Part shown: positions 4,200-56,570 of the stretch, piece by piece
How positions within the stretch are numbered: the stretch's first letter is position 1
Layout: each line of letters begins with the position of its first letter
Assembly (NCBI RefSeq): GCF_004010195.1
Contig: NC_057755.1
Coordinates: 11,187,928-11,251,927, forward strand
Source of the DNA: Chiloscyllium plagiosum
Taxonomy: Eukaryota
DNA: 64,000 nt
Direction of reading: 5' to 3'
Notes under the pieces: generated by a model
Databases searched by the model: none
What the model saw: only the letters and a program-made list of their open reading frames with translations
Told to the model about the DNA's origin: nothing
Made by a program: the position numbers and the translations under genes

Positions 4200-5530
4200 C
4201 TGGATTAGTGGAAGAGCACAGCAGTTCAGGCAGCATCCGAAGAGCAGTAAAATCGACGTTTCAGGCAAAAGCCCTTCATCAGGAATAAAGGCAGAGAGCC
4301 TGAAGGGTGGGGGTGGGGAGAAAGTAGCATAGAGTACAATAGGTGAGTGGGGGAGGGGATGAAGGTGATAGGTCAGGAAGGAGGGTGGAGTGGATAGGTG
4401 GAAAAGAAGATAGGCAGGTAGGACAAGTCATGGGGACAGTGCTGAGCTGGAAGCTTGGAACTAGGTGAGGTAGGGGAAGAGAAAATGAGGAAATTGTTGA
4501 AGTCCACATTGATGCCCTGGGGTTGAAGTGTTCCAAGGCGGAAGATGAGGCGTTCTTCCTCCAGGCGTCTGGTGGTGAGGGAGCAGAAGGACATGGTTGA
4601 AGAGCTTCAGGGCAGAGGAAATGACCTGGGAGTTGCAGTGGGAGAGGGACTCCCTGAGATTCTTGTAGAGAGAGGAGGAAAACTTCGTCAAGGCAGGCAT
4701 CCTTGCAAGAGGATTCGCAGTAGGGTTTAAATCAACGAGGTAAAAACAATGACTGCAGATGCTGGAAACCAGATTCTGGATNNNNNNNNNNNNNNNNNNN
4801 NNNNNNNNNNNNNNNNNNNNNNNNNNNNNNNNNNNNNNNNNNNNNNNNNNNNNNNNNNNNNNNNNNNNNNNNNNNNNNNNNNNNNNNNNNNNNNNNNNNN
4901 NNNNNNNNNNNNNNNNNNNNNNNNNNNNNNNNNNNNNNNNNNNNNNNNNNNNNNNNNNNNNNNNNNNNNNNNNNNNNNNNNNNNNNNNNNNNNNNNNNNN
5001 NNNNNNNNNNNNNNNNNNNNNNNNNNNNNNNNNNNNNNNNNNNNNNNNNNNNNNNNNNNNNNNNNNNNNNNNNNNNNNNNNNNNNNNNNNNNNNNNNNNN
5101 NNNNNNNNNNNNNNNNNNNNNNNNNNNNNNNNNNNNNNNNNNNNNNNNNNNNNNNNNNNNNNNNNNNNNNNNNNNNNNNNNNNNNNNNNNNNNNNNNNNN
5201 NNNNNNNNNNNNNNNNNNNNNNNNNNNNNNNNNNNNNNNNNNNNNNNNNNNNNNNNNCTTTTCCACCTATCCACTCCACCCTCTCCTCCTTGACCTATCA
5301 CCTTCATTCCCTCCCCCACTCACCTATTGTACTCCATGCTACTTTCTCCCCACTCCCACCCTCCTCTAGCTTATCTCTCCACCCTTCAGGCTCTCTGCCT
5401 TTATTCCTGAAGGGCTTTTGCCCGAAACGTCGATTTTACTGCTCCTCGGACACTGTCTGAACTGCTATGCTCTTCCAGCACCACTAATCCAGACTCTGGT
5501 TTCCAGCATCTGCAGTCATTGTTTTTACCT
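4200..5530. mobile_element. Internally deleted Penelope-like element with inverted terminal copies (spans N-gap)
   Basis: About 4200-4410 and 5258-5495 are reverse complements. Minus strand encodes a PLE-type C-terminus (RRLEEERLIFRLGTLQPQGINVDF). Flanked by ACCTTTCCCAGCAATT (4184-4199) and ACCTTTCCCTGCAATT (5527-5542). Confidence 0.8.
4251..4286 (-). ncRNA. Minimal hammerhead ribozyme motif (PLE type)
   Basis: Minus strand reads uuc CUGAUGA A GGGC UUUU GCCU GAAAC GUC ga. Core, stem II and GUC cleavage triplet are intact; stem I is very short. Confidence 0.7.
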
Positions 5531-6381
5531 TTCCCTGCAATTGCAGTTTTTGATTCTGATGTACAGAATCCACAGTTCGTTCTGTTTTTACGTTTGTGTA
5601 AAGCCGAGTGAACTCAACTCCCTCATTCTTTGACAGATTTTCCCTGGCTTTGGTTGTTTCCAGTCTACGTTTTCCGAGTGGTTTCACCAGTAGTTCAGTT
5701 TTATTGTTGCGTCCTTGCATCTGCCGAAGCAGGTTGATTTATAAATGTTTTACAGAGAATTTAGTTCCAATGCCAAGCAGGCTGAGTCAGCATTTATTCC
5801 CCATCCAGAGTTATACTACAGAAGGTGGTGGTGAGCTGCCTTCTCAAACCGCTGCAGACCATTTGGTGTAAGAGCACTCGCATAGAGTCATAGAGCACGG
5901 AAACAGACCCTTTGGCCCACTCATCCATGCTGACCAGGTTTCCTAAATTGAACTAGTCCTGTTTCCCAATATTTGGCCCAGATCCCCTTTACTTTTCCTA
6001 CCCATGGAGCTGTCCAAATGTCTTTTAACTGCTGCAGGAACACTGAAGGAATGGTGATATGTTTCCAAGCCAGAAAAGTGAGTGTCTTGAAGGTAACTTG
6101 CAAGTGGTGTCATTACCATGAATCTGCTGCTTCTGGACAGTAGCGGTTGTGAGGGTGAGAGGGAGCTGTCTGAGGAACATTGGTGAGCTGCTGCAATGTG
6201 TCCTGTAGCTGAGTTGAAAAATGTGGTGCTGGAAAAACACAGCAGGCCAGGCAGCATCCGAGAAACAGGAGAATCGACGTTTCGGGCACAAACACATCTT
6301 CAGGAATGAGGCTGGTGTGCCAAGCGGGCTGAGATAAAAGGTAGGGGGAGGGAATTGGGGGCAGGGGTGCTGGGAATACGA

Positions 6382-6655
6382 TACAAGGAAGAGGCTCTCC
6401 TCCTCCCTCTACAAGGAAGAGGCTCTCCTCCCTCTACAAGGAAGGAGCTCTCCTCCTCCCTCTACAAGGAAGAAGCTCTCCTCCTCCCTCTACAAGGAAG
6501 AGGCTCTCCTCCCTCTACAAGGAAGGAGCTCTCCTCCTCCCTCTACAAGGAAGAAGCTCTCCTCCTCCCTCTACAAGAAAGAGGCTTTCCTCCTCCCTCT
6601 ACAAGGAAGAAGCTCTCCTCCTACATCTACAAGGAAGAGGCTCTCCTCCTCCCTC
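6382..6655 (+). repeat. 28-bp minisatellite (TACAAGGAAGAGGCTCTCCTCCTCCCTC), left block, about 10 units
   Basis: Direct tandem repeats, some shortened to 25 bp. Confidence 0.95.
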
Positions 6656-7373
6656 TTATGCGGAATATACAGGGTTAACGGTAGGGTTCTTAGTGAGGTG
6701 GAGGAACAGAGGGATCTTGGGGTCTATGTTCATAGATCTTTGAAAGTTGCCACTCAGGTGAATAGAGCTTGTAAGAAGGCCTATGGTGTATTAGCATTCA
6801 TTAGCAGAGGGATTGAATTCAAGAGTCATGAAGTGATGTTGCAACTGTACAGGACTTTGGTTAGGCCACATTTGGAGTACTGTGTGCAGTTCTGGTCACC
6901 TCACTTTAGGAAAGATGTGGAAGAGTTGGAGAGCGTGCAGAGAAGATTTACCAGGATGTTGCCTGGAATGGAGAATAGGTCGTACGAGGATAGGTTGAGA
7001 GTGCTAGGCCTTTTCTTGTTGGAATGGCGAAGGATGAGGGGTGACTTGATCGAGGTTTATAAGTTGATCAGAGGAATGGATAGAGTAGACAGTCAGAAAC
7101 TTTTTCCCGAGTGCAACAGAGTGTTACAGGGGACATAGATTTAAGGTGAAGGGTGGAAGGTATAGGGGAGATGTCAGGGGTGGGTTCTTTACCGAGAGAG
7201 TGGTGGGGGCATGGAATGCGCTGCCTGTGGGAGTGGTAGAGTCAGAATCTTTGGTGACCTTTAAGCGGAAATTGGATAGGTACATGGATGGGTGCTAGGA
7301 CAAATGTTCGGCATAACATTGTGGGCCGAAGGGCCTGTTCTGTGCTGTATTGTTCTATGTTCTATGTTCTATG
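6656..7373 (+). mobile_element. 5'-truncated, little-decayed CR1-clade LINE inserted into the minisatellite
   Basis: ORF 6698-7138 carries the CR1 ORF2 C-terminal motifs RDLGV, LYRTLVRPHLEYCVQFWSP, LESVQRRFTRM and RGDLIEVYK. (TTCTATG)n tail at 3' end. Confidence 0.93.
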
Positions 7374-7995
7374 TACAAGGAAGAGATTCTCCTCCTCCGT
7401 CTAAAAGGACAAAGCTCTCCTCCTCCCTCTACAAAGAAGAGGCTCTCCTCCTCCCTCTACAAGGAAGAGGCTCTCCTCCTCCCTCTACAAGGAAGAAGCT
7501 CTCCTCCTCCCTCTACAAGGAAGAGGCTCTCTTCCTCCATCTACAAGGAAGAAGCTCTCCTCCTCCATCTACAAGGAAGAAGCCCTCCTCCTCCCTCTAC
7601 AAGGAAGAGGCTCTCCTCCTCCCTCTACAAGGACGAAGCTCTCCTCCTCCCTCTACGTGGAAGAGGCTCTCCTCCTCCCTCTACAAGGACGAAGCTCTCC
7701 TCCTCCCTCTACAAGGAAGAGGCTCTCCTCCTCCCTCTGCAAGGAAGAAGCTCTCCTCCTCCCTCTACAACGAAGAAGCTCTCCTCCTCCCTCTACAAGG
7801 AAGAGGCTCTCCTCCTCCCTCTACAAGGACGAAACTCTCCTCCTCCCTCTACAAGGAAGAGGCTCTCCTCCTCCCTCTACAAGGAAGAAGCTCTCCTCCT
7901 CCCTCTACAAGGAAGAGGCTCTCCTCCTCCATCTACAAGGAAGAGGCTCTCCTCCTCCCTCTACAAGGAAGAGGCTCTCCTCCTCCATCTACAAG
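7374..7995 (+). repeat. 28-bp minisatellite, right block, about 22 units
   Basis: Same unit as the left block. The 28-aa periodicity in three ORF frames matches a 28-nt unit. Confidence 0.95.
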
Positions 7996-8075
7996 CACCT
8001 CTCCTATTCCCAGCGCCCCTCCCTCAAATTCCGTTCCACTACCTTTTATCTCAGCCCACTTGGCACACCAGCCTC

Positions 8076-8112
8076 ATTCCTGAAGAAGGGCTTATGCCCG
8101 AAACATCGATTC
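8076..8112 (+). ncRNA. Hammerhead ribozyme motif, slightly decayed
   Basis: auuc CUGAAGA A GGGC UUAU GCCC GAAAC AUC gauu. G>A at the CpG of ACGU breaks the helix III palindrome. Confidence 0.55.
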
Positions 8113-8954
8113 TCCTGCTCCTCGGATGCTGCCTGGCCTGCTATGTTTTTCCAGCACCACATTTTTCAACTTTGTACTCCAGCATCTGCAGTCCTCACTT
8201 TCTCCTAGTGTCCTGTAGCTGGTCCACCCTGCTATTACTAAGCGACAGTGGGGGAGCGGAACAGATTGAAGGTTTGTGGATGTGGTGGCAATCAAGTGGG
8301 CTGATATATCCTGGAATAAAGGTAAACTACTGCAGATGCTAGATATCTGCAATAAACAAAGAAAATATTGGATAAACTCCGCCAGTTTGACAGTTTCAGT
8401 GGATGGAGAAAGACAAGTTAAGATTTTGAATCTGGTCTGACTCTTCTCCAGAATTCTCCATGGTCCTGGATGGTGTGGAGGTTCTTGAGTTGTTGGTGGA
8501 GCTGCACCCATCCAGGCAAGTGGGGGGAAGGGGTATTCCCCCACACTTCAGACTTGTGCCTTATAGATGGTGGGACAGGCTTTAGGGAGCCAGGAGGTGA
8601 CTTTTTCACAGCAAGATTCCTAACCTCTGACCTGCTATTGCAGCAAAAATGCTTACATGGCTAAGCCAGGGTTGATTTGGTCAATGGGAATCCCCAGGAT
8701 ATGGATAGTAGTGGATTCCATGATGGCAATGTCATAGAATACCAGAGGGTGATGGTTAGAATCTCTTTTGTTGAAAATAATACATTTGTGGCACTTGTGT
8801 GCATCAAATATTGTTTACTACCGCTCCATAAGATCGTAAGGACATAAGATACAGGAGCAGAATGAGACCATTCAGCCCCAATGAATTTGCTCCACCATTA
8901 AATTTATGACTTGCATGTTTCTTAGCCCCATTCTCCTAACTTCTCCATGTGTCC

Positions 8955-9956
8955 AAAGTTTGTGAGAAGATTTGTAGCTCAGGTGTTCGTTGTTGTGGTT
9001 CTGTTCGCCGAGCTGGGAATTTGTGTTGCAGACTTTTCGTCCCCTGTCTAGGTGACATCCTCAGTGCTTGGGGGGCTCCTATGAAGCGCTTCTGTGATCT
9101 TTCCTCTGGCATTTGTAATGGTTTGAATCTGCCGCTTCCGGTTGTCAGTTCCAGCTGTCCAAACTCTGGGTCAGATATGTGGATGACACCTTTGTAATCA
9201 TTAAAAACACAGAAATAGAGAACACACACCGGATCATCAACGCCACACTCACTGGAATCCGATTCACTAGAGAGGAAGAAAAGGACAACCAACTCCCATT
9301 CCTAGATGTGATGGTACAGAGAACACCTAATGGAGAATTCACCACAAAGGTATACAGGAAAGCCACACACACAGATCAAGTCCTGNNNNNNNNNNNNNNN
9401 NNNNNNNNNNNNNNNNNNNNNNNNNNNNNNNNNNNNNNNNNNNNNNNNNNNNNNNNNNNNNNNNNNNNNNNNNNNNNNNNNNNNNNNNNNNNNNNNNNNN
9501 NNNNNNNNNNNNNNNNNNNNNNNNNNNNNNNNNNNNNNNNNNNNNNNNNNNNNNNNNNNNNNNNNNNNNNNNNNNNNNNNNNNNNNNNNNNNNNNNNNNN
9601 NNNNNNNNNNNNNNNNNNNNNNNNNNNNNNNNNNNNNNNNNNNNNNNNNNNNNNNNNNNNNNNNNNNNNNNNNNNNNNNNNNNNNNNNNNNNNNNNNNNN
9701 NNNNNNNNNNNNNNNNNNNNNNNNNNNNNNNNNNNNNNNNNNNNNNNNNNNNNNNNNNNNNNNNNNNNNNNNNNNNNNNNNNNNNNNNNNNNNNNNNNNN
9801 NNNNNNNNATATACCGACCACTGCAGCGGACAGCTGGAACTGACAACCGGAAGCGGCAGAGACAAACCACTACAAATGCTGGAGGAAAGATCACAGAAGC
9901 GCTTCACAGGAGGCTCCCAAGCACTGAGGATGTCACCTAGATGTCTGCAACTCAAA
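8955..9956. mobile_element. Second-family Penelope-like element with inverted end and RT fragment (spans N-gap)
   Basis: RT motifs RYVDDTFVII and LPFLDVMV at about 9173-9385. About 9045-9158 is an inverted copy of 9829-9941. Exact 14-bp TSD TTCTCCATGTGTCC at 8941-8954 and 9957-9970, interrupting a minus-strand CR1 3' fragment. Confidence 0.88.
9028..9067 (-). ncRNA. Hammerhead ribozyme motif, family 2
   Basis: Minus strand reads gca CUGAGGA U GUCACCU AGAC AGGGGAC GAAAA GUC ugc. Stem I GCA/UGC, 7-bp stem II with one mismatch, one substitution in helix III. Confidence 0.6.
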
Positions 9957-10416: not shown

Positions 10417-10492
10417 GATGAGTACATGAAACTAATGAGTGCATGAAAGTAATGAGTACATGAAACTAATGAGTACATGAAAGTAATGAGTA
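10417..10492 (+). repeat. 17-bp tandem repeat (TAATGAGTACATGAAAC/G), about 4.5 units
   Basis: Direct repeats visible, followed by a short inverted echo (TTTCATTTACTC). Confidence 0.85.
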
Positions 10493-17790: not shown

Positions 17791-18940
17791 GCATCCAAGA
17801 CATTGAATATATTTAGAACGGAGATATATCGTTTCTTGTTGATTTAGGCAAGCAAGGGTTGTTGAGGGGAAGGCGGACGAATGGGGTTGAGAAACGTACC
17901 AGCCATGACTGAATGGTGGAGCAGACTCAATGGGCTGAATGGTCTAAATGTGTTCCTATATCTTATGGTCTTACTGTCTTGTTGACTGTAGCGATTGGAG
18001 AAGGCAGCTTACTGTCTCAGGGACACTTCGGCAAATGCACTAAAGGCTAGGAGGTTTATCGTGTGGAGTCTTCTGTTCCAGTTGGAGGAGATGTGTCACT
18101 GAGTTGCTCGGAATTGTGGAACTATTTTCAGAATTGGAATTTAGGATAACCTGCAATCCATAGTCAGAATAATTAATGACAGAATTAATCTCCCCAAGTC
18201 ATGAATCAAGCTCTGAGTCTTTGGAACGTTCTGTCACACAGAGCTGGAGGGGCAGAGCGCTTGTGTATGTTCAAGGCTGAGATTGCTAGATTCTTCATCA
18301 ATCGGGGAATACACGGTTGTGGGGAAGGCAAGTTCAACGGACTGCTCAATTCCTCATGGATGATCCGGTGGGAATTCGGATGCTGCATTCTAGCTACAAA
18401 CAGGTTGTTGCATTGGCTGATCAGGCATGATCCTACTGAACAAAGGGGCAGACTGGCGGGACTGAATGGCCTACACCTGTTCCTATTGCTTACGGTCTTA
18501 CAGTCTAAATGCAACAAAGGCTGGTCAGTGACAGCTGTGTGAGAGAGTCTGGAATATCTGGAATGTAATGGCTGACCAGTCACTTAGGGCTGGTCTGAAA
18601 TAATATGTGATCCAGAGCTGAAACAGATCGTGTCCAATGCAACAACCTGTTTGTAGCCAAAATGCAGCATCCAAATTCCCATTGGACCATGCATGAGGAA
18701 CTGAGAAGTCTGTAGAACTCTCCAAGCGAAAATCCAAAATTCACCTCATCACAAAAGGGACACAGCTCGATGGTGTCATGTGTTTGTTCAAAATACTGTG
18801 GAGAATTCACATGTTGCAACCACCAATTCCCGTGGCACTCCCACTGTGTTTAAATGGAAGATTCTGGAAAAGTACACCCACAGAGCTTCATCCAGAGAAA
18901 TCACCAGCATCGCATTGTGACAGGATAATTCAAACAGAAA

Positions 18941-20224: not shown

Positions 20225-23200
20225 TTACTACAAAATGTATGTATTAAGTTATTCTAGAGCAGTGTTTTCCGAATGGTAAGGCTGTGCTGATGTCTGGGTC
20301 TGTCGATTAAGGAGCTGAGATGTTCTTGAGTGAAGTGATGTGCTCTTCCTATCACACGTGGGAGATGAGCAAGAATCTCCATATTCCTGATGATTATACT
20401 GCAGGAATTGTCTATGGTTGGGAACCCTAACAGATCACATGGAAGGATTAGAGCAGCAGTTAAAAGCAGTGGGAAATTTACAGAAGGTCTGGAATGAGAT
20501 GGATAGCTGTTATAGGAAGGGAGAAAAACCATAGATAAAGTCAGATAATGGATTGCCTCCAGGAAAGTAGAAGAAGGAAGCAGTTAATGTAGAATCTTTT
20601 GTTGCCATTCCGATCTCAAACAAGGATGTTGTTTTGGAAAATATAGGGGCTGATGGACTCTCAAGGTAATGTAACATGAACCGCCAATTTTCTGGCACTG
20701 AGACTGGCTCTAATGTAACAATGTATATGTCAGGCTCCAATCAATCGATTGTGACAGGAGAATCTCTATTCAGAGGAACAAACAGACGGTTCTGCTGCTG
20801 ACAGTGAGAAATCAGAATGGTATGCTGCCTTCCTGGTATCATGATCAAGGATATCTCGGAGAGGATGCAGAATGTTCTCAAAGGGGAGAGGGACCAGCAG
20901 ATGGTCATTGAAAAGACTGGAACTAAAAAGGTAGGAAAAGAATGGGAGAGGATCTGAACAGCGAATATAGGAAACAAAACAGGAGGTTAGTAGTAACTGG
21001 ATTAATCCTGGTGCCGTGTGCTAGTGAGAGGAGGAATAGGAAGGGAGAACAGATGTATGTGTGACTGAGGGGTTGATACAGGGGACAGGAATTCACATTT
21101 CTGAATCATTGCAATCAATTCTGGAGTAGAAGGGAGCAGTATAAGAAGGATGGGGTGCACCTGAATTGGAAGGGTGTCAGTATCCTTGCAGGGAGTTGTG
21201 CTGATGCCACTGAAGAGGGTTTAAACAAGTCCGCAGGTGGGGTTGGTCCCAGGGAGGTAGTGAGAAAAGGGAGAAGTCATATCCATTCTGTCAGAGGTCT
21301 CATGACACCAGGTTATAGTCCAACAGGTTTATTTGAAATCACAAGCTTTCAGAGTGGTGCTTCTTTGTCAGGTGAAAGGTCAAGATTAATTTAGGATACC
21401 TGGTCTGCATGGACAAGTTGGATCAACAGATCTGTTTCTGTGCTGTACACCTCTACAACTGCAAATTGTCAAGGCAGTCAAGAGCAAGGCAGAGAACAAG
21501 GTCAGACTGATTAATTAAACTGCATTTATTTGAATTCAAGATGCCTGACAGGCAAGGCAGATGAACTCAGGGAATGGTTGGGAACATGGGGGTGGGATAT
21601 CACGCCAATTACAGAGACGTGGTTCAGGGATTGACTGGACTGAAAGCTTAATGTTCTCAGGGCAGAGATGTGAAAGGAAGGATAGAAAGTTGGAGGGGGG
21701 GGGGCGCAGAGAGGAGGGGCAGTGGCGTTTTAGGTTTGGGATAACATCATGGCTGTACTTAGGAAGGATAATCTTGGGGGGGTGTTATTTCAGTGGAACT
21801 GAGAAGTAAGCAAGTGATGATCGCATTGTTGTGATGTACTATAGAACCCTCCCCCAATAGTCAGAGGGAAATTGAGAAATGAATTTGTGAGGGTATTGCA
21901 GTTATCTGTAAGACTGATAGAGCTGTAATTTGAGGGGATTCTAACTTTACACAAGACAAGCACATAGATTGGGACTGTCAAGAGTTTGGATAGTGAGGAA
22001 TTTAAGTGAGAATGAGGAAATTTCCTCATTCAGTATGTGGATGCACTTTTTAGAGAAGGAGCAAACCTTGATGTACTCTTGGCCATAGCAAGCGATTGAA
22101 GTGACAGTGGAGCAGCATTTTGGAGCCAGTGATCATAACTTATGGAAAAGACCTTGTCGAAAAGTTGAAGTTCTAAATTGGAGGAGAGCCAATTTTGATG
22201 ATATTAGGCACGAACTTTCAAAAGTCTACTGGGAGAGGCTATTCCCAGGTAAAGACACGATTGGAAAGTGGGAGGGTTCAAAAATGAGATAATGATAGCC
22301 CCGGAGCACTATGTTCATATTAGTGTGAAGGGGAAAGCTGGGAATTGTGGATGGCTAGAGAAATTGGGGCTCCGGTCAGGAAAAAAAAAGATGACTTATG
22401 GCAGTTATAAATATTGAGATTGAGGAACTCCATCCAGGAGGCTGAGGGCAGTAGGAGTTCACACAAAAGGGAACTCAGGAAGGCAAAAGGGGGCCATGAG
22501 GTAGCTTTCGCAAATAGGGTTAAGGGGAATCAAAAGAGACAGTACAAATACACTAAGGGCAAAAGGTAACGAGGGAGAAAATCGGGATTACTTAAAGATC
22601 AAAAAGGCTGCCTATGTGTACAACCACAGGAGTTAGGTGAGATATAAACTGAGTATTTCCATTCAGTATTCATGGTGGAGAAGGATATGGAAGCTAGAGC
22701 ACTTGGAGAAATATGCAGTGAGATCTTGACAAGTGGGAGCAAGTAAGGACTGCAGATGCTGGAGATCAGAGTCAGGAGTGTGGTGCTGGAAAAGCACAGC
22801 AGGTCAGACAGCATCCAAGGAGCAGGAGAATCGACTTTTCAGGCATAAGGACGTGCTTGTCTTGATAATCTAAATATCTTGACAAGTGTCCATTTTACAG
22901 AGGTGGAGGTGCTGGATGTCTTAAAGCACATCAAGTTGGATAAATCGCCTAGACCTGATCAGATGTGCATGAGAACTCTGTGGGAAGCTAGGGAAGTGAT
23001 TGATGGGCTCTTTGCTGAGATAGTTGTATCATCGATAGTCACAGGTGAGTGCCGGAAGACTGGAGTTTGGCTAACATGGTGCTGTTATTTAAGAAATGGG
23101 GTAAGGAAAAGCCAGGGAACTATAGACGGGTGAGCATGCTGTCAATAGTGGTATGTTGTTGCAGAGGATTCAGATTGAGAGGATTTACATGCATTTGAAA

Positions 23201-24465: not shown

Positions 24466-25089
24466 AATTACTTTAAAGCCGGTGACTCTATTACTGTATA
24501 TTCCCCTACTACTCTCTGAGTAAAGAAGCTACCTCTGTCATCTGTCCTATATCTATGACCCCTCAATTTAAAGCTATGTCCCCTTGGATTAAACATCGCT
24601 ATCTGAGGAAAAAGGCATTCATAGTCCACCCTATCTAGTGCTCTGATTATCTTCTATGTCTCAATTAAGTCACATCTCAACCTTCTTTTCTCCAATGAAG
24701 TCAGCCCCAATTCCCTCAGCTTTTCCTCATTTAGGCCTTCCCTCCATACAAGGCAACATTCGAGTAAATCTCCTCTAAAACCTTTCCAAAGCTTCCACAT
24801 ACTTCCCTAAATGCGGTGACCAGAACTGTACGCAATACTCTGAGTGCAACCACTCCAGAGCTTTGTACAACTGTAGCATGACCTCATGGTTTTAAACTCA
24901 ATCCCTCGACCAATAAACGTGAACACTCTCTACTAATAAAAAACTGAAATAAGAAAGAAGTTAGGGTCTTAGCAAGCTCCTTGATATATTTTGAGGAGGC
25001 TTGTTCTGGTCCATAATAATACAGACTGTGTTGGATGCACTGAATGTTCAATCATCAACTTCCAGACCTTTCCTTCTTTTCTCTTACAG

Positions 25090-39425: not shown

Positions 39426-39713
39426 TAAGTCCCTGTACACCCATCAGACTATTGGAACGGGTGTAACACAATTTGGATCCAGGGTGAATGAGGGATTGGG
39501 GTTCTGAATGGACACATGGGTGAACAGATATACGATCTGATTGGCTGTTTAAACAGGATGGTCTATGTCAAAGACTGAGGATTGGGCTTGAGGAGAGAGA
39601 CCAGGGATAATTTACCTTCACTGCAGACAGATATGCTGCAAATTGTAACATCACTCAGAAGGTTATTGGTCCTGGAACAACACCAGAAACACGATTTGAG
39701 TGACTGGAACATG

Positions 39714-40578
39714 GTTGAAACTTTATTGCTGGAACAGCACAGCAGGTCAGGCAGCATCCAGGGAACAGGAGATTCGACGTTTCGGGCACAGGCCCTTCTT
39801 CAGGAATGAGCAGAGAGTGTTCAGCAGGAGAAGATAAAAGGTAGGGAGGAGAGACTTGGAGGAGGGGCGTTGGAAATGTGATAGGTGGAAAGAGGTCAAG
39901 GTGAGGGTGATAGGTCGGAGTAGGATGGAGGCGGAGAGGACAAGAAGAAGACTGCAGGACAGGAAGGCAGTGCCGGGCTGGAGGGATCCGGCTGAGACAA
40001 CTGCCTTGTCAGATCCACACCCCCCCACCGACCCAACCTCCACTCCCGGCACCTTCCCTTGCAACCACAGGAGGTGCAACACTTGCGCCCACACCTCCCC
40101 CCTCACTTCCCTCCAAGGCCCCAAAGGAAACTTCCATACCCGCCACAGATTCACCTGCACCTCCACCCACATCATCTACTGCATCCGCTGCAGCCGGTCT
40201 GGCCTCCTCTATATTGGGGAGACAGGCCGCCTACTTGCGGAGCGATTCAGAGAGCACCTCTGGGCCACCCGGACGAACCAACCCAACCAACATGTAGCAC
40301 AGCATTTCAACTCCCCCTCCCACTCCACCGAGGATATGCAGGTCATTGGACTCAACCACCGCCAAACCACAACAACCCGACGGTCGGAGGAGGAGCGTCT
40401 TATCTTCCGACTGGGAACCCTCCAACCAAAGGGGATGAACTTGGACTTCACCAGTTTCTTCATCCCCCCTCCCCCCACCTTGTCTCAGCCGGATCCCTCC
40501 AGCCCGGCACCGCCCTCCTGACCTGCAGTCTTCTTCTTGACCTCCCCGCCTCCACCCTACTCCGACCTATCACCCTCA
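39714..40578. mobile_element. Penelope-like element: inverted end plus GIY-YIG endonuclease domain
   Basis: Plus frame reads CNHRRCNTC...IIYCIRCSRSGLLYIGETGRLLAERFREH...EERLIFRLGTLQPKGMN. About 39901-39999 and 40480-40579 are inverted repeats. Confidence 0.92.
39772..39807 (-). ncRNA. Best-preserved minimal type I hammerhead ribozyme motif
   Basis: Minus strand reads AUUC CUGAAGA A GGGC CUGU GCCC GAAAC GUC GAAU. 4-bp stem I, 4-bp stem II, full core and loopless palindromic ACGU helix III. Confidence 0.8.
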
Positions 40579-42195
40579 CGAGAATGGGATGGCGTTTTTA
40601 CAGGGGGCAGGATGGGAGGAGGTGTAGTCCAGGTAGCTGTGGGAGTCGGTAGGTTTGTAGTAGATGTCTATGGTACTAGGGGCAGCAGTGTTAGGTTAAT
40701 GCAAACTGAGGGGAGATTGGAGGTGAGATACCAGAATGTCAGGGGTGGAGGGGAGAAGGTGGTTTCTATTTTGAAATGTTGTGTGATCCCTTTATATATC
40801 AATTCAGGAGACAGGAAGCGGAGGGGGCGGGGGGGAGGGTGTCCAGGGATCATTCAGGAATCCGTCAATATTCCAAAGTGAGTATATACAGATTTTTAGG
40901 GAGTGAAGGAGAGAGAGGGAGCAATTCCAGGAAGTGTCTCCGGTATAGAGATGGGTTCATGATCCTGCTGCAATAGGCTATCACGATTTCACACAGGAAG
41001 GATGCCAGTGTCTGCCGCATTGTCGCTTTGTTGGAAAACTTTATTTCCGGCTTTGTCGATGTAAGGAATTAGAATCAAATGGATAGAGAATGGAGGACGT
41101 AATACATCTTTTCCAAACATTATCCTTCCTAGGATACCATGACTGTCTTCTCCCCCCCCCCCCCCTCCCCAACTTCCTTTATGTCCGATACACCAAAGGG
41201 GTAGGGTATGGTGACTCAGTGTTAAGAGCGCTGGGTCAGCTATAGAGAGACCTCAAACCCACGCACATCCCACCATAGAATTTAAATACAATTCATGAAG
41301 AAAACCATTTGTAATTGCATTTTGGTCTCTGTCATGGTATCTGTCTACGTTTAATCCATTGTTGGGGGAGGACCTCTGGGTAATGTCCAATAGGGGGAGC
41401 TGATGGTCCAATTGCTGGGTAATGGGACCAGTGTGGGCACAGTGAATGTTCAGTGATGCACGCTCGATGGGCCAAAGGGCCTCCTCTGTACTATATGATT
41501 CCACTATGAGGGAAGGGACTGGTTTGGGTTTCTTTGACTGACAGATCCCTACGGGAACATAGGAACCCGGTAACACTCCACGGTCCTTCGGAAGAATCGA
41601 AAGTTACCAATATCTCTGTCCTTGCAGCAGTATGACACCCCATCCCACTGCATTTACTCATCGCCAATCATTCAGGATCACATCCTGGTCTCTTCATGGT
41701 CTCTCCTTTTAAAAAAAAATAAGGGATGCGAAGGTCCTGGGTTGACTCAGTAGTAATGGCCTACCCATCTGTTCAGAAAGTCAAGCACATTGATGCCAAC
41801 CTGGAGTCCTGGGTGGTCCTGATTGGAGAAAGATGGTAGAGCTCCTTCCCTGGACAACATCAGTGAACTGGATGGTTTTTATAACGATGGTTAAAAGGTC
41901 ACCATTACACCAACTTTTTCCTGCATCACTCCATCAGTTCTTTATCTCCAGACCTTGCATGTTCAATTCTCAAGCTCTTACCCACTATTCTTCGTCATGT
42001 GACTACTCCCCTTTCAATCAGGAATAGTTCCTGGCCGAAAGGAGAGGGCTGCACTCTAACCCTCACTGACAGTCCCTGGGCGTATCCAGGGATCCTAAGC
42101 CCTTCTCGTCTTAATTCAATATAGAGACGTGAAGGAGATATAAGATAAATCTAAGTTTCCCTTGTTGGTAAAATTGGGTTTTCTCTGGGTTGTTC

Positions 42196-43289: not shown

Positions 43290-43420
43290 AATTCCTGATG
43301 AAGGGCTTTTACCAGAAATGTCGATTCCCCTGCTCCTTGATGCTGCCTCACCTGCTGTGCTTTCCCAGCACCACACTCACGACTCTGATCTCCAGCATCT
43401 GCAGCCCTCACTTTCTCCAT
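43290..43420 (+). mobile_element. Solo PLE-end fragment with decayed hammerhead motif
   Basis: ATTCCTGATGAAGGGCTTTTACCAGAAATGTC followed by the conserved TGCTGCCT...CCAGCATCTGCAG tail. Confidence 0.75.
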
Positions 43421-47384: not shown

Positions 47385-48110
47385 TTGTACACTGGAAATT
47401 GCTGGAAAAGCTCAGCAGGTCGAGCAACATGCGTTCAGAGAAATCAGAGTTAATATCTCGGGCCCAGTAACCCTTCCTCAGTACTGATAGTAACTGGGGA
47501 AATGCCAGTTTATATGCAGAAAATAGGGTGGGGCGAGGGGTTAAAGAATAAATGATAGATGGGGATAGACCCCAAAGAGAGAAGGGCAGTTGGTTAGAAA
47601 AAGGAGCTGGTAATGAGCTGCCTTGGAGGGAGAACAGCTGTTAATGAAGACTGCCAGTGTCAAGCAATAGGTCATGTGTAATAGCAGACTACATGATAAC
47701 GAGGCCTTTTGTGTATGGTAGGGGGATAGGGCATGGGAGAGTACAAACCCTCAAATTATCGAACTCAGTATTGAGTCCAGAGGGCTGCAGGGTCCCCAAA
47801 TGGAAAATGAGGTGCTGTTCTTCCAGCACGCACTGAGCTTTGCTGGAACACTGCAGCAAACCTGAGACAGAAATGTTGGCCAGGGAATAGGGTGGTGGGT
47901 GAGAGTGGCAGGCAACTGGAAGCTCAGGTCCTTTTTTGCAGGCAGAACGTAGGTGGTCTGTGAAGTGATCACCTAGTCTCTGCTTCATTTCCCCCATGTA
48001 CAGGAGATCACACTGTAGAATGCGGTAGACTAGATTGTGGTAAGTGCAGGTCAATCAAAGCTTCACCTCAAAGGTGAGGAGGGAGGAGGCAAATGTGTTT
48101 GTGGGAGAAG
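47385..48110 (-). mobile_element. Old Penelope-like 3' fragment (GIY-YIG and end) just downstream of GPCR gene C
   Basis: NLVYRILQCDLLYMGEMKQRLGDHFTDH and EEQHLIFHLGTLQPSGLN. Confidence 0.85.
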
Positions 48111-48425: not shown

Positions 48426-49351
48426 TTATGAACAGGAGGCACAAGGTTTACATCTCTGGCTTCCCCATCGGGGTTTATCTCGATGATATCTCAGTGCAGC
48501 CTTGAGCTGCTCTCTGAACTTGGACTGGGTCATCCCATATATAAATGTGTTAGTGCAGCAACTTACATTCACCAACATGACTCCGACTTGTTGGAATAAG
48601 ATTGAGGAATGATTGTCAGCTTTAGAATCTGATCTAGGAATTATGTTAGAAATGAAGTTTATCACATATATCAACCACAAAAGGAGAAAGTTGCCCGATA
48701 TGGCAAAGAGTAAAATCACAGATTTCCTCCTGCTCTCCATCTCTGGGTCTCTGCGATTCTCTCCCTTGCTCTGACTCCTCAGTGCCTTACGGACTTGGCT
48801 GGTCATTAAAATGTGTCTGACTGTCAGGGTGTTGAACAGAAGAATTAAAATGAAGGCAAAGAAAGGGGTTAAAGCTGTGTGAAACCACCTGAATCCCTTC
48901 CAAAGGGATTCAGTGTAATAACTTGACTTTGAAATACAGAGCCATGGTATATTGTCTACGATTACATAAGGCTTATATCGAAAGTAGAAGGGCACATGGA
49001 GTAAACAGAACAGAATACAGGTTGTTGCTAAAACAATAGCTGTATTTCTCTCTGTGCAATATTTAGTTTTTAGTTTCTGGCAACAAATGGCGATGAATCG
49101 ATCAAATGTGAAAGTGACAGTGAACCAAACAGAGCAGGATGTCGCTGCTACAGACAGGACATAGACTACACTGCACACTGGAGTGATATCCAAGAAGGAA
49201 AGTGGGAGATAATAATTGTTAATTTGCCTCAGTATGACCTCCGTGATAACGACCAGTAGGTCTGCTGTTGACATGGCCATCAGGAAACGAGTGATGCCCG
49301 TGGAGAGACCGCACTTTCCTCTGGACAAGATCACAATTGCCACAAGATTAA
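48426..49351 (-). CDS. Main 7TM exon of a paralogous GPR139/142-like GPCR (gene C); first exon not located
   Basis: Minus-strand acceptor TTTTTTCTCCCCTGCAG|TT AAT CTT at the same position and phase as gene A. Uninterrupted frame with ADLL, FTFDRFIAICC, MESRRKS and SCCTNTFIYGMTQSKFREQ, clearly homologous to gene A. Confidence 0.85.
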
Positions 49352-49427
49352 CTGCAGGGGAGAAAAAAAAGAGAAACTGAAAATTTCTGTTCAAGTATTC
49401 TTCACATTTCGTCCCAAGCAAACATTT

Positions 49428-50048
49428 GAGTATACTTGAGCATAAGAGCTGACAGATCATGTTAAAATTGTACAAGACATTGTATCGGATGCATTTAGAA
49501 TACTGTGTACAATTCTGGGTGCCACATGACCAAAAGAATGTAGATGTTTTGGAGAGGGTGCAGAGAAGGTTTACGCGGATGCTGCCTGGTATGGAAGGTG
49601 CTAGCTATGAAGAGAGGTTGAGTAGGTTAGGTTTAGTTTCACTAGAAAAAAAGGAGATGGGGTGGGACCTGATTGAGGTTTACAAAATCATGAAGGGTAT
49701 AGTCAGGGTGGATAGAGACAAGCTTTTTCCCAGGGTGAAGGATTCAATCACGAGAGGTTATGCTTTCAAAATGAGAGGTGGAAAGTTTAAGGGGGATACA
49801 CACAATAAGTGCTTCACATAGAGGGTGGTGGGCGTTTGGAACGCATTGCCAGCAGAGGTGGTAGAGGCAGGCACGGTGGATTCATTTAACATGGGTCTGG
49901 ACAGATGCATGAGTGGGGGGAGCAGAAGGATACTGATGCTTAGGAATTGACCGACAGGTTTAAACTGTAGATTTGGATTGGCTCAGGCTTGGAGGGCCGA
50001 AGGGCCTGTTCCTGGGCTGTAAATATTCTTTGTTCTTTGTTCTTTGTT
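49428..50048 (+). mobile_element. CR1-clade LINE 3' fragment next to the splice acceptor of gene C
   Basis: HLEYCVQFW, LERVQRRFTRMLPG and DLIEVYKIM, with (TTCTTTG)n tail. Confidence 0.92.
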
Positions 50049-51835: not shown

Positions 51836-52365
51836 GTGAGGTTTCCTCCCACTTCCTCCAGACCAAAGGGGTAGCCATGGGCAAACGTATGGGCCCCAGC
51901 TATGCCTGTCTCTTTGTTGGCTACGTAGAGCAGTTGATCTTCCGTAATTACACCGGCACCACTCCCCACCTCTTCCTCCGCTACATTGAATGACTGCATT
52001 GGCGCCAGCTCGTGCTCCCACGAGGAGGTTGAGCAATTCATCAACTTCACCAAAACATTCCACCCTGACCTTAAATTTACCTGGACCATCTCTGACACCT
52101 CCCTCCCCCTCCTGGACACCTCCGCCCTCAGACCCCACCCCTCCAACCGTAACAAGGACAGAACGCCCCTGGTGCTCACCTTCCACCCTACCAACCTTCG
52201 CATAAACCAAATCATCCGCCGACATTTCCGCCACCTCCAAACATACCCCACCACCAGGGATATATTTCCCTCCCCACCCCTTTCCGCCTTCCGCAAAGAC
52301 CATTCCCTCCGTGACTACCTGGTCAGGGCCACGCCCCCCTACAACCCACCCTCCCATCCTGGAAC
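51836..52365 (+). mobile_element. Penelope-like RT fragment with internal deletion, next to a CR1 fragment
   Basis: FLQTKGVAMGKRMGPSYACLFVG and LFLRYI/DCIG. The LPLLD motif is joined directly to the linker DRTPLVLTFHP. Confidence 0.87.
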
Positions 52366-53855
52366 TTTACTGTTGTAAACAGGGAGGTTTATAACAGGAA
52401 GGGTTTTCAGGAAGCTGGAGAGGAGGGGGAGCTGAAGGAAGTGGCGCAAACAGGAAGGGTTATTGGAAATGTGTGAGGTTTTAGAGAGCCCGCAGCGGTC
52501 GGATCTGGAGCAATTCTTGGAACATGGAGGTGGTTTTACAATGACTGAGAGTCTCGAGCCACAGGAGATTACAGAAGTAAACACGTGGAGTGGACTGAAA
52601 GGAACCGGGGATGGAATCACACAATAGCCAACTGGAGGTAGACGTTTTAAAGAAATCATTCACCAATTAACCAATCATACGACAGCCAAATCGCAGTGAT
52701 GAAACGCGTGTTATAGGCGAATGACTAGTATCAGTCAGGGACGAGCTGGATTGGCTTTACTGGGAGCTTGTACAGACACGTTGGTTCAAAGGCACCCTTC
52801 TGCCTGCCCTGAAGTGGCATATAGGTGCATGATTCCCCTTATTCTGAGATGATTCCCTAAGTCCTAGACTCTACCACTCAGGGGAAACAACCTTTCAACT
52901 TTTATGTCATCAAGTAGCTGCAAGAATCTTGTCTGTTTCAATAAAGGTGCCTCTCATTCGTCGAAACTCAAGTAAGCATGTTTCCCCTGCTGCAAGGGGA
53001 GTAAGCCCAATTGCTTTAATCTTTACTTACACCCGGAGCATATAAAGAAGGAATTAGCCATACACGTCTACAAATCATTGGTCAGACTGCATTTGGAATA
53101 GTGTGTTCTCTTCTGGGCACCTTATTGAAAGAAGGATGTTAAAGCCTGGGAGAGACAGTTCAGAGTAGATTTATTGGATTTGCACGGGAATTACTCAATT
53201 CGTCTTCAAGGTATCCTATCTGGAACTGGTGCCTTCTCTACCTGGAGTGTTGCCCGTCTATTTAGCATCTCTCCTTTGTCTGTCAGTATACTGTTTATTT
53301 GCTCAACACGTGCATTTAGAGCTGGGTCATTATCACCATTTTCTGATTTGGTAAAAACATAAATAAAGTGCTAATTTTGTGTCATCTTTCCAAACCCTTT
53401 ACTTCAGTTCATAGCTTACCATGCCTGTTCGTTCTGAGCCACAGTCTATCATTTGCTCACCTTTTACGACTAACAGGCTTGAGGAACATTTTGCTATTTG
53501 TTTTGGCATAGCATGAAATCCTTTCCTCATGCTTCCTCTTAACCTATCTTATTCCACCCTCATCCTTGCTACTGCCTTTGAGATAATCGTTCTAATTTTT
53601 ATTGTTATTCTTATTCTGGTGTGCATCATGCACATCCTGTTTGTTACTTATTTTCCCATCCGTATCCTTCACCATCCCAATACGCTAGTTTTGGACACTG
53701 CTATTTATTACTCTAATGTACCCAGGTTGCTCCCTATTCATCTCTTTTTTGAAATCTCCCCATTCGTCATCCATGGCTTTCTTCACCAACATGTGTTTCA
53801 AATCAACCTGACCACTTCAATTTTTAAATCCTTACAAACTGCTCTTTTCCAGTCT

Positions 53856-53999
53856 TGATTTGGAGATGCCGGTGTTGGACTGGTGTGCACAAAGTTAAAA
53901 ATCACACACCAGGTTATAGTCCAAGAGGTTTAATTGGAAGCACTAGCTTTCGGAGTGACGCTCCTGTTGGACTATAACCTGGTGTTGTGTGATTTTTAA
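53856..53999. mobile_element. Short fold-back element (family 3 PLE-end-like)
   Basis: Internal inverted repeat AAAGTTAAAAATCACAC..CCAGGTTATAGTCCAA / TTGGACTATAACCTGG..GTGTGATTTTTAACTTT. 12-bp flanking direct repeat CTTTTCCAGTCT at 53844-53855 and 54000-54011. Confidence 0.75.
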
Positions 54000-54944
54000 C
54001 TTTTCCAGTCTGGAATCTTAATCCTTGACTGATCTGTATCCTTTTCCAACTTCGTATTGAATCTGTATTAGGATGACTATTTCAAAAATACTCCTGCAAA
54101 TCAGAATTTCAACACTTTGCGTCATTTCCAAGGACTACGTCCAATACAACTCCATCCTTGGTAGGACTGGAAAGATATTATTTGAGCAAGTTTTCCTCCA
54201 TACACTGCAGGATATTCTTCACTTCAATCCTCCCCACTCTAACCTTTTCCCAGTCTACCAACGGATAATTGAAATCAACATCTATTATAATCCTACTTTT
54301 CCTGCAGATTTCCATAATCTGCCTACCAAAGCTCTCGTCTATGTCCTCCCCAATATTAAGAGGTCTATAATAAATATCCAACTGCTCAGGAGCAGAGAGT
54401 TTATAAATTCATACAGCGAAGAAACAGATACTTTGATCTTACTCTACTATGTTGGCCGTGTTCCCTCAAACTGAATTACTCCTGTGTGCCTGTATCTGGT
54501 CCATATCTGTCCAAACATTTCATATTCATGTACCTGTGCAAATGTCCTTTTAGATGTTGTACATGTATCAGTCTCTACCACTTCCTCTGGCAGCTAGTTC
54601 CATCTACACACCATCCTCTGTGTGCAAATTTTGACACTCAGGTCCGTTTCCCCTCACACATTCAACCTATGCCCTCTATGTTTAGACACGCCTACCCTGG
54701 ACAGAAAGTTATATGGACTTGGCAGCAAAAGCAAATTGGGAGGCTGGTACAATTACACCATTTAGAAGTCCTTGGCTGGGTGCATGAAGAGGAAACGTTT
54801 AGAGGGTTGTGGCAAAAGTCATGGCAAATGGGACTCGATTGATTTAGGATTTTTGCTTGACATGGATCAAATGGTCTATGCCTGCGCAATGCATCTCTAT
54901 GGCCCTATATTAGTGATTATCATGACGACCAAAATATTTTTTAA

Positions 54945-56570
54945 TCACGTATTTGTCTAAATGTTTTTTAAATGTTGTAACTGCCCCTGCATCCACCACT
55001 TCCCCTGGAAGTTCATTGAATACACGGACCACCCTGTGATTAAAAAGAAAATGCCCCTCATTTATTTTCAATTCTTCCTCCTATTACCTTGAAAATATGT
55101 CCCTTCGTTTGAAATCCACCACCCTGGCGAAAAGACAACTGCAATTCACATTATTTACATCCTTCATGATGCTATAGATCTCTATAAGGTCACTTCTCAA
55201 CCTCCAGTGCTCCACTGAATAGGTCTCAGCCGATCCAGCCTCTCCTTATAAGTCAAACCTTCCCTTCCAGGCAACACCCTGGCATGTCTCTTCTGAACTC
55301 TCTCCAGCTTCATAATATCCTTCCTACAACTGGGTGACCCAAACTGGCCATGACACTCCAGAAGACGCCTCACCAACATCATACACAACCTCAACATAAC
55401 GGCCCAGCTCCTATACTCAATGGTCTGAGCAATGAAGGCAAACATGCTCAAATCTCACCAGCTCATGCCTGATAAAGAGGTTATGCTCTAAATGTCGACT
55501 CTCCTGCTCCTCAGATGCTGCCTGACTGGATGTGATTTTCTAGCACCACACTTTTTGAAACACGCTCAATGGCTTCTGACCCACCCTTCATAAATGTGAT
55601 GTAAAGTGCACAGAACTATGCTCGTGAAACCCTGCTCTTCAGCACAATGATCCAATTATTTAAGATTTGGAGATGCTGATGATGGACTGGGATGTACAGT
55701 TAAAAATCACACAACACCAGGTTATAGTCCAACAGGTTTAATCGGAAGCAATTCATCAGGTGGATCAAGGAGCAGTGCTCTGAATGCTAGTGCTTCCAAT
55801 TAAACCTGTTAGCCTATAACCAATTACTTAAGACCTCTTTGCAATCTTAGATAAACTTCATTGTTCACTATACCAGAAATCTTGCTGTCAACTGCAGATT
55901 TACTCACCATGCCTTCTATATTCTCATCTATATCATTCATATAAATGACAAACAAAAGTGAACCCAGCAACAACCCCTGTGATCACAGGCCTCCAGTCAA
56001 AAAAAAATCCCTCCACCATATATCCCTCTGTGTTATGCCATTAAGCTAATTTTGTATCCAATTGGCAAGCTCACCCTGAAATCCGTAGGATATAACTTGC
56101 AGTCAACAATGTGGAATTTTCTCAAAGGTTTTACTAAAATCAAAGTAAACAATGTCCATCACCCCACCCTCATCTATATTAGAATACAGAGTCAGAGAGA
56201 CGTAAATCATTGAAACAGACCATTCGGTCCTACTCGCCCATGCTGACCAGATATCCTAATTTAATCTAGTCCCATTCGCCAGCACTTGGCCCATCTCCCT
56301 CAATGCCATTCCTGTCCATATAGCGATCCAGATACCTTTTCAATGTTGCATTTGTACTAGCCTCCACTACTTCGTCTGACAGCTCATTCCATACACACAC
56401 CATCCTCTGTGAGAAAAGAAATGCCCTTTTGGTTTCTGTTAAATCTTTCAGCTGTCACCCGAAACGTATGTCCTGTAGTTCTGGACTCCCCCAACCCAAC
56501 GAAAAGACCTTGTCTATTTAACCTATCTATGCCCCTCATGATTTTGTAAACCTCTATCAGGTCACCCCTC
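54945..56570 (-). mobile_element. CR1-clade LINE fragments with nested small insertions
   Basis: LERVQKR and RGDLIEVYKIM. RT remnant at about 55840-56175. Confidence 0.8.
55666..55819. mobile_element. Second fold-back copy of family 3
   Basis: Same sequence family. Flanking CCAATTATTTAAGA (55652-55665) and CCAATTACTTAAGA (55820-55833). Confidence 0.72.

Follow-up and report, generated by a model that had tools for sequence, protein, structure and literature searches.

We propose that the small Penelope-like element (PLE) repeats with minimal hammerhead ribozymes that are dispersed through a 64,000-nucleotide stretch of the genome of the shark Chiloscyllium plagiosum (RefSeq assembly GCF_004010195.1, contig NC_057755.1, positions 11,187,928 to 11,251,927, or G000:C46:11187928-11251927; host genome 3.56 Gb), called the window in the following, are the 5′-truncated 3′ ends of at least four autonomous PLE lineages, each having a minimal type I hammerhead for which cleavage is predicted to need paired copies. 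We give this reading a probability of about 85%. Judged from their sequence, most of the copies are not separate non-autonomous elements, having the same sequence as the 3′ ends of autonomous PLEs. The type of element is already known, and it is the copy number that is exceptional here. Copy coordinates are given with the C of CUGA as position 0, and the unselected sample is the 424 kb formed by the window and 36 arbitrary 10-kb stretches.

The reading is based in part on where the hammerheads lie relative to PLE reading frames. Locus L061 has an open frame of 893 residues with an RVT_1 domain (33 bits, cut-off 29.6) and a GIY-YIG domain (21.2 bits, just under the cut-off of 22.6), and a family 1 hammerhead follows about 160 nt downstream. 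The window itself contains a PLE C-terminus at 39982-40494, in which GIY-YIG scores 26.5 bits (Pfam cut-off 22.6), and two shark species supply the nearest named relatives of this fragment, all of them uncharacterized proteins. The CX4CX2C linker reads C-NHRR-C-NT-C in P0001 and C-NRRR-C-NT-C in L061, both agreeing with the form CX2-5CxxC. It is noted that the 3′ untranslated region (3′UTR) of the fragment at 39982-40579 is the same sequence that stands upstream of the adjacent inverted hammerhead copy. Among 20 loci fetched with a shark PLE protein, 11 have an intact family 1 hammerhead downstream on the same strand, and a pattern search found no intact family 1 motif in the other nine. Upstream of families 2 and 3 there are diverged pieces of PLE reverse transcriptase or endonuclease (L157, L166 and L168), and the window family 4 copy at 47395-47486 has upstream of it an endonuclease fragment that is 37% identical. 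The hammerhead with its tail sequence is found about 170-215 nt downstream of the matches to the reverse-transcriptase and GIY-YIG reading frame. Since the hammerhead families lie downstream of PLE reading frames, they would therefore be the terminal repeats of different PLE lineages.

Two further kinds of evidence concern the truncation. Candidates for the PLE protein, counted at a first look as lower bounds and not as copy numbers, amount to at least 213,778 for the C-terminal half and at least 16,182 for the N-terminal part, and the large excess of the former fits strong 5′ truncation. Moreover, the short copies grade continuously into copies that reach the GIY-YIG frame, with 14 of the 61 family 1 copies that include the tail in the unselected sample extending at least 100 nt upstream, and the short copies are without a head or promoter module of their own. 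The features by which a Neptune-type insertion is recognized, i.e., a hammerhead in the terminal repeat, 5′ truncation, an adjacent inverted copy and a 30-40-bp tail, are all present.

The structure of the element beyond the tail bears on the same point. In one long copy the tail (+78..+129) continues unbroken into the 5′ region, which extends for about 1 kb or more up to the start codon, and by this continuity of sequence the tail is part of the 5′ end of the element. A 27-mer spanning the junction of tail and 5′ body has 898 genomic matches, and the 20 junction loci that were fetched contain long tandem forms, with the order 3′UTR, hammerhead, tail and 5′ body, together with varied internally deleted forms, which retain 50-200 nt of 5′ body directly followed by the final 4-25 nt of the 3′UTR and a second hammerhead. 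The spacing between hammerheads at the junction loci is 193-320 nt, with 224 nt recurring.

By contrast, it could be supposed that the families are independent non-autonomous retroelements, resembling short interspersed nuclear elements (SINEs) or retrozymes without long terminal repeats (non-LTR retrozymes), which have their own hammerhead and borrow the PLE enzymes. The discrete 100- and 130-bp units with target-site duplications speak for this supposition, as do the internally deleted units with tandem hammerheads just described, one of which is present in the window at 4197-4781; in addition, a preprint (10.64898/2026.07.22.740005), in the part of it considered here, derives animal retrozymes from PLE terminal repeats. 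If the supposition were true, however, one would have to account for short copies that are collinear with and near-identical to coding PLE ends and reach upstream by 100 nt or more in the proportion given above, for the lack of a separate head sequence, and for most copies being single or head to head and not head-to-tail tandems. The deleted derivatives are also about a hundred-fold rarer, with the 898 junction matches standing against 86,254 exact family 1 matches. Independent elements are thus an improbable explanation. The sequence-only reading of the window, which was made without database searches, had regarded the repeats as non-autonomous retroelements; this holds for the minority of internally deleted and tandem mini-elements, while most copies are better described as the 3′ ends of autonomous PLEs.

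The ribozyme is of the same design in all five families that we have distinguished, with CUGANGA, one unpaired base, helix II, GAAA, a palindromic ACGU or AGCU, and a GUC, GUU or CUA site. The families are as follows.

Family 1: helix I AUUC/GAAU (GAUU in some subtypes), helix II GGGC/GCCC, unpaired base A, palindrome ACGU.
Family 2: helix I GCA/UGC, helix II GUCACCU/AGGGGAC (one A.G), unpaired base U, palindrome ACGU.
Family 3: helix I CAC/GUG, helix II GGAGC/GCUCC, unpaired base A, palindrome AGCU.
Family 4: helix I AGUU/AACU, helix II GGGUC/GACCC, unpaired base A, palindrome ACGU.
Family 5: helix I CCA/UGG, helix II GUUACCU/AGGUAAU, unpaired base C or U, palindrome ACGU.

The pair closing helix II is G-C in families 1-4 and G.U in family 5. 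Compared by eye over the five families, without a covariation statistic, the sequences of helix I and helix II differ in every family with the pairing retained, and the core is invariant. Between families 2 and 5, for example, U-A is replaced by C-G in helix II and G-C by C-G in helix I, which are double compensatory changes. The fifth family, at L053:54-87, L100:3617-3650 and L181:162-195, is related to family 2 through such compensatory changes and does not occur in the window. The letter after GAAA in family 2 is C, giving ACGU, in eight of 11 genomic copies and U in the other three, and 15 of the 18 motifs found in the unselected sample retain the palindromic helix III pair. All this agrees with what had been read from the letters of the window, namely that these are Penelope-type minimal type I hammerheads in several families whose stems differ while core and pairing are kept. 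The motifs have an unpaired base after A9, the pair G10.1-C11.1 and a loopless palindromic helix III, and their helices covary across the five families.

The core is also conserved within family 1, as the sequence-only reading had asked to be checked against the flanks. With the unselected copies compared with the nearest of eight references, only 7 of 427 cells differ in the non-CpG core, as compared with 22 of 309 in helix II, 20 of 179 in the loop, 399 of 3,247 in the tail and 168 of 1,178 in the upstream region; it should be noted that much of the flank difference is subtype divergence, because the references represent few subtypes. At the four CpG positions (C11.1, G12, C15.2 and G16.2) 39 of 195 cells differ, the dispersed copies decaying at two CpGs. 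Because of this CpG decay, old families (family 4 and most of the window copies) read CCCAAAAC, GAAACAUC or GAAAUGUC. The family 2 window copy reads GAAAAGUC. Within the tail, blocks at about +45..+53 and about +69..+76 are nearly invariant and, by eye, recur in family 4 copies; they are candidate recognition sites for the PLE protein.

A chance origin of the motifs is excluded. In the window alone, the loose pattern CTGAWGA..GAAA is not above chance, with 10 matches where 6.3 are expected, and therefore exact patterns were counted genome-wide, with the same patterns read backwards as controls. Family 1 gives 86,254 matches, family 3 gives 18,482, a 30-mer of family 2 gives 9,753 and family 4 gives 355, while every reversed control gives 0. 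A structural descriptor (requiring the core boxes, a loop of 3-8 and a G-C-closed helix II with no fewer than 4 bp) finds 18 motifs in the unselected 424 kb and none in the reversed sequence, the descriptor scan having likewise been proposed beforehand as a check; a relaxed descriptor finds 183 motifs in 937 kb, including the fifth family, and again none in the reverse. Family 1 pieces occur once per 7 kb in the unselected sample, from which about 5×10^5 pieces are extrapolated for the genome. The very high copy number first suspected from the window is borne out.

The PLE-derived features of the window are listed here by position.

4089-4187, minus strand: family 4 copy, −4..+96, CpG-decayed.
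4197-4556, minus strand: family 1 copy (TTTT subtype), −300..+82; its hammerhead at 4282-4255 has C11.1 changed to U, and upstream of it lie the 3′UTR and the last PLE reading-frame codons (4469-4576).
4611-4724, minus strand: PLE 5′ body, about 115 nt, after the tail end at 4738-4781.
4738-4781, minus strand: family 1 tail end, +83..+127.
5258-5530, plus strand: family 1 copy (TTTT subtype), −147..+127, the CUGAUGA box at about 5405 lacking 3 letters; right arm, head to head with 4197-4781, with an N run between the arms.
6218-6391, minus strand: family 1 copy, −88..+86, left arm of a head-to-head pair; in its hammerhead at 6303-6276 the 5′ strand of helix II is mutated and helix II broken.
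6382-7995, plus strand: 28-bp satellite in arrays at 6382-6656 (about 10 units) and 7374-7995 (about 22 units).
7996-8206, plus strand: family 1 copy (TTAT subtype), −84..+126, right arm of the pair with 6218-6391; its hammerhead at 8080-8107 reads GAAACAUC, with G16.2 changed to A.
8954-9161, minus strand: family 2 copy, −97..+111; its hammerhead at 9064-9031 has an intact core, with C15.2 changed to A.
9809-9941, plus strand: family 2 copy, −115..+18, ending after +18; right arm of a head-to-head pair with an N run between the arms.
17909-17957, minus strand: family 1 tail fragment, +73..+122.
21305-21374, minus strand: family 3 copy, −3..+67, decayed.
22736-22849, minus strand: family 1 copy, +11..+125, 5′-truncated within the hammerhead.
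29421-29450, minus strand: family 1 tail-extension fragment, +91..+121.
31944-32053, minus strand: family 4 copy, +15..+125.
32525-32687, minus strand: family 4 copy, −9..+150, decayed.
39704-40000, minus strand: family 1 copy (CCTGT subtype) in the short tail form, left arm of a head-to-head pair, with a fully intact hammerhead at 39803-39776 and with about 200 nt of upstream sequence that takes it into the end of the PLE reading frame.
39982-40579, plus strand: PLE fragment, right arm of the same pair, with the CX4CX2C linker, GIY-YIG, the stop codon and then ~80 nt from the start of the 3′UTR, its own hammerhead lost; a family 1 match lies at 40393-40579.
43291-43418, plus strand: family 1 stub, −4..+125, decayed, with helix II and G12 mutated.
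47395-47486, minus strand: family 4 copy, −5..+87.
47761-48072, minus strand: diverged PLE endonuclease fragment, about 300 nt upstream of the family 4 copy at 47395-47486.
51844-52369, plus strand: fragment of a PLE reverse transcriptase, corresponding to residues 475-739 in the 893-residue reference frame.
53856-54003: family 3 head-to-head pair, 53856-53965 on the minus strand being +7..+122 and 53963-54003 on the plus strand +44..+87; the first core box is missing from both arms.
55462-55554, plus strand: family 1 stub, −7..+86, decayed.
55664-55821: family 3 head-to-head pair, 55664-55750 on the minus strand with the core internally deleted and 55763-55821 on the plus strand being +2..+61.

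Only the copy at 39803-39776 on the minus strand has a perfect family 1 motif, and no tandem hammerhead pair was seen among the window copies. The pieces at 4611-4781 and 4197-4556 on the minus strand together form an internally deleted, non-coding PLE derivative. Nearly all of the places that had been pointed out from the letters alone are recovered, 17 out of 18: for family 1 all eight, in the states described (the deleted core at about 5405, the truncation at 22849 and the decay at 43295 and 55469); for family 2 both, at 9064-9031 on the minus and 9809-9941 on the plus strand; for family 3 all three, its consensus, which had been pieced together from partial copies, being the one with 18,482 genomic matches; and for family 4 four of the five, all on the minus strand, the site near 8420 alone not being recovered at the search threshold of E<=1e-3. 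Blast matches at 4738-4781, 17909-17957, 29421-29450 and 40393-40579 are added to those places.

We now consider the ends of the copies. In a first set of 43 family 1 copies anchored on the exact motif, the 5′ ends cluster at −4 to −7 and the 3′ ends at about +94-99 and about +125-130, the latter being seen in unselected copies too; an inverted copy abuts directly in 13 of the 43. The two alternative 3′ ends are 32-38 nt apart, about 37 nt in families 2 and 3. The 5′ starts of the 61 unselected family 1 copies are distributed as follows.

Start at −100 or further upstream: 14 copies.
Start at −99..−9: 6 copies.
Start at −8..0: 18 copies (about 30%).
Start at +1..+24: 11 copies.
Start at +25..+34, the bin that holds the cleavage site at +28: 1 copy.
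Start beyond +34: 11 copies.

The bin −8..0 thus holds 18 of the 47 starts lying between −100 and +91, with a binomial p of 1.5e-12 against an even spread. Families 3 and 4 have the same edge, with copies starting within a few letters of the hammerhead; in family 3 at least eight copies end within 8 nt of the motif, another family 3 count being inflated by a short reference. An automatic search reported exact flanking repeats of 8-18 bp for 13 of 47 solo short copies, of which two rows are one spurious internal match in overlapping loci and those of 8-9 bp may be chance; target-site duplications of 10-15 bp are also visible by eye among family 1 copies. Adjacent copies are arranged head to head (minus then plus, with tails outward) in 54 cases and tail to tail in none among 361 family 1 pieces, and in 26 cases against 1 of the opposite kind in families 2-5.

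These features can be compared with the PLE of a lizard, for which the relevant part of Frangieh et al. (2024, PMC11167929) describes that the purified protein nicks and extends both DNA strands, that reverse transcription starts at two adjacent internal RNA sites, giving the "tail", that the protein needs only a short RNA around the junction of terminal repeat and open reading frame, and that an element with a mutated hammerhead inserts equally well. The hallmarks of PLEs given in the corresponding part of Craig et al. (2021, PMC8557442) are 5′ truncation, an adjacent inverted copy and a 30-40-bp tail. With two fixed 3′ ends, head-to-head pairs and almost no starts at the cleavage site, the shark copies therefore bear the same insertion signature as the lizard PLE.

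The scarcity of cleavage-site starts also argues against the rolling-circle retrozyme model that Cervera and De la Pena (2014, PMC4209133) proposed, in the part considered here, by which the copies would descend from RNAs of unit length that were circular or had been cut by the ribozyme. It is true that two hammerheads on the same transcript could pair through the palindromic ACGU or AGCU, and that tandem 224-nt units exist. But only one of the 61 family 1 copies starts in the cleavage-site bin, head-to-tail arrays are rare, and hammerhead mutants left PLE insertion in vitro unchanged (PMC11167929, as far as considered here). Family 3 copies that had seemed to start at the cleavage site were rejected as such, being internal deletions. 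We hold this descent to be very improbable.

Based on our reading, the course of an insertion would be as follows. By analogy with the lizard PLE in vitro, the reverse transcriptase would start inside the tail, on nicks in both DNA strands, and reverse transcription would usually stop early or run off the 5′ end of the RNA. This RNA 5′ end would likely be the transcription start, 4 nt before the hammerhead, so that the reverse transcriptase would have, on every transcript, a start site at a distance of about 100-130 nt from the 5′ end of that transcript, and initiation there would give the stubs. The ribozyme would likely be kept by selection in the source elements, possibly for cutting multimeric transcripts, while being neither needed for nor, mostly, acting on the RNAs that are copied into DNA. 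Accordingly worded as a claim on the stubs, those of 100 and 130 bp could be full-length run-off complementary DNAs of a terminally redundant leader, and in at least three lineages their 5′ end would mark a transcription start that precedes the hammerhead by 3-5 nt; this part is tentative, and we would put it somewhat below even odds. In families 1 and 4 the word TCATTCC, TTATTCC or TCAGTTC spans the edge, which we take to resemble the initiator consensus. The transcription start lies in the terminal repeats of Drosophila Penelope and of a Chlamys element, according to the part of PMC8557442 considered here.

The main rival for the sharp 5′ edge is that it is not the end of the RNA and that reverse transcription stops or switches template there, where the RNA would be structured or bound by a protein. 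Helix I of families 1, 3 and 4 starts at this edge, the varied deletion junctions just upstream of the hammerhead suggest frequent template switching there, and the 5′ ends scatter over about 6 nt, all of which would be natural for a stop or a switch. However, a polymerase coming from the 3′ side meets the ribozyme fold before the edge and not after it, both arms of the head-to-head pairs have this edge as their end, which is what run-off at a shared RNA end would produce, and the edge is spanned in families 1 and 4 by the initiator-like word. A stop or switch at this site is, to our judgement, rather unlikely.

Several observations weigh against the reading proposed here or against parts of it. 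First, the deleted and tandem mini-elements with the 898 junction matches are true non-autonomous, retrozyme-type derivatives, although a minority. Second, a full-length copy with its 5′ end in place was not found by way of the N-terminal protein loci, a far-5′ motif and the extension of one locus, the longest copies being 5′-truncated or abutting N runs. Third, cleavage only as a dimer is a prediction from motif and folding: when folded by itself, the intact window copy at 39803-39776 forms helix I and helix II and leaves the core unpaired, and the cofold of two monomers returns no hammerhead dimer as the minimum-energy structure. The Rfam hammerhead models give no gathering-score match in the window and none at E<=10 in four loci with intact motifs; presumably these models expect a helix III hairpin, which is the likely reason for their missing loopless motifs. 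Fourth, as to the edge, two short copies of family 2 start near −65 and not at the ribozyme, and after allowing for target-site duplications the 5′ ends of family 1 scatter from −5 to +1, some with extra letters. A copied cap would, we assume, leave an extra G at −5 of the copy; such a G is present in 14 of 35 copies (p=0.01), and many of these G belong to the partner arm, which confounds the count. Finally, in one poly(A) single-cell run 626 reads lie over copy and tail on both strands, with no preferred start or end and with loose ends at the boundaries. Reads on both strands without fixed ends fit passive read-through of a dispersed repeat. A second poly(A) single-cell RNA run has no reads on the copy, and 31-letter words of the window copy occur in runs under four organism labels; no RNA data set is listed for the stretch.

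Two candidates concerning the surroundings of the ribozyme were rejected. A reading frame from the ATG of the helix II loop, which would parallel the lizard PLE, stops after 26 codons, and this ATG is absent from the TTTT and CCTGT subtypes in the copies inspected by eye. The ribozyme edge has no AG, and it was therefore rejected as a splice acceptor of the kind present in Drosophila virilis Penelope. We also observed that the 5′ region of the family 1 PLE is CpG-rich, with a 36-bp tandem repeat in 1 to at least 14 copies (L130, at G000:C10:5887852-5889477, and L135), and that in the same two loci TGACGTCA words stand upstream of the start codon. Another abundant repeat, which begins with (GATTA)n and reads ACAGTGTGGAAACAGGCCCTTCGGCCC..., adjoins PLE copies at L061:5162-5457 and on the reverse strand in the last 600 nt of L169. 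The 28-bp satellite sits between the inverted family 1 copies at 6275 (minus) and 8080 (plus), and its unit agrees with the PLE 5′ body at 23 of 26 letters, by which the satellite may have been born from a fragment of the retroelement.

Some observations concern assembly and annotation. The window has N runs at 4782-5257, 9386-9808 and 56571-57070, the first two lying exactly between the arms of head-to-head PLE pairs, and N runs abut PLE reading frames at many of the fetched loci as well; those at head-to-head pairs may be assembly gaps at inverted repeats. Sub-threshold matches to Rfam microRNA and scaRNA models in L167 and L153 were set aside, falling on long hairpin-forming stretches (L167:1625-1723, L167:2020-2149 and L153:1813-1983), which could be mistaken for hairpin RNA genes; the best of these matches reaches 53 bits, where the gathering score is 330, and lies across two family-1-like tails that stand head to head. 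Two intronless open frames, 25044-26000 on the plus strand (318 residues) and 48426-49604 on the minus strand (392 residues), each match the rhodopsin-family seven-transmembrane receptor domain (E about 4e-21 each) and are likely, from their sequences, a pair of related receptor genes amid the repeats.

The copies make up a very large natural record of PLE insertion events. The pieces record where reverse transcription started (at two fixed sites per family) and where it ended (at a sharp edge on the 5′ side of the ribozyme), and they record that the hammerhead had left the copied RNAs uncut. In this they are in line with the one biochemical study available for a PLE (PMC11167929, in the part considered here), which they extend to a second vertebrate group, and, as a modest addition, they give a testable position for the PLE transcription start. 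If the stubs are indeed run-off products, the ribozyme would lie at the extreme 5′ terminus of the RNA, so that the cap would be lost on self-cleavage, and hammerhead and tail would form a terminally redundant, R-like region; this would also explain about half a million pieces in one genome. Repeat annotation of shark genomes should mask as PLE the stubs, the head-to-head hairpins and the 28-bp satellite derived from the element, and should not label them SINEs, microRNA precursors or new ribozyme genes.

Hepatitis delta virus (HDV)-like ribozymes sit at the 5′ ends of the R2, RTE and L1Tc retrotransposons, whose genomic copies begin at the cleavage site. If the PLE transcript starts 4 nt before the hammerhead, the two systems would be alike in having a ribozyme at the extreme 5′ end of the RNA that trims the leader. 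They differ in the class of ribozyme, and in that here only one of 61 copies falls in the cleavage-site bin.

The shark motifs are the same as the minimal hammerheads of metazoan PLEs, as far as these are described in the part of PMC4209133 considered here, in the core CUGANGA...GAAA...UH with an unpaired base after A9, G10.1-C11.1 and a short helix I, in having no helix III loop and a palindromic 15.2/16.2, and in forming several covarying families per genome, with copies mostly single or on closely opposed strands. The differences are the number, 86,254 for one family here as compared with about 4,000 in coelacanth and about 9,000 in Xenopus, and the length of helix II, which is only 4-5 bp here in families 1, 3 and 4; cartilaginous fish are not named in that part of the source. 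Supplementary per-species motif tables apart, our search found no literature joining Penelope, sharks and hammerhead ribozymes; PMC6155905, in which the three words do occur together, uses "shark" for the shape of the motif only.

With endonuclease-bearing PLEs (PMC8557442 and PMC11167929, the parts considered here) the shark elements share the heavy 5′ truncation, the adjoining inverted 5′-truncated copy, the optional 30-40-bp tail matching two internal start sites of reverse transcription, the trouble that such structures cause in assembly, and the Neptune-type CX2-5CxxC linker. In contrast, the 5′ end at the ribozyme edge and the class of 100/130-bp stubs are not described in those parts of the two sources, and within this compass the hammerhead-edge 5′ ends, with about 30% of the copies as compared with 1 of 61 in the cleavage-site bin, go beyond the published PLE descriptions. 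The reading frame of the lizard PLE, moreover, starts inside the hammerhead, whereas here about 1 kb or more of 5′ region lies between the tail and the start codon.

Finally, the minority of deleted forms is like the animal non-LTR retrozymes, as these are described in the part of the literature considered here, in consisting of non-coding tandem units of 205-320 bp with one PLE-derived type I hammerhead each; the retrozyme preprint (Li et al. 2026, 10.64898/2026.07.22.740005), in its part considered here, samples one cartilaginous fish. Unlike those retrozymes, the shark copies, in the window as well as in the genome sample, are mostly single stubs or head-to-head pairs.

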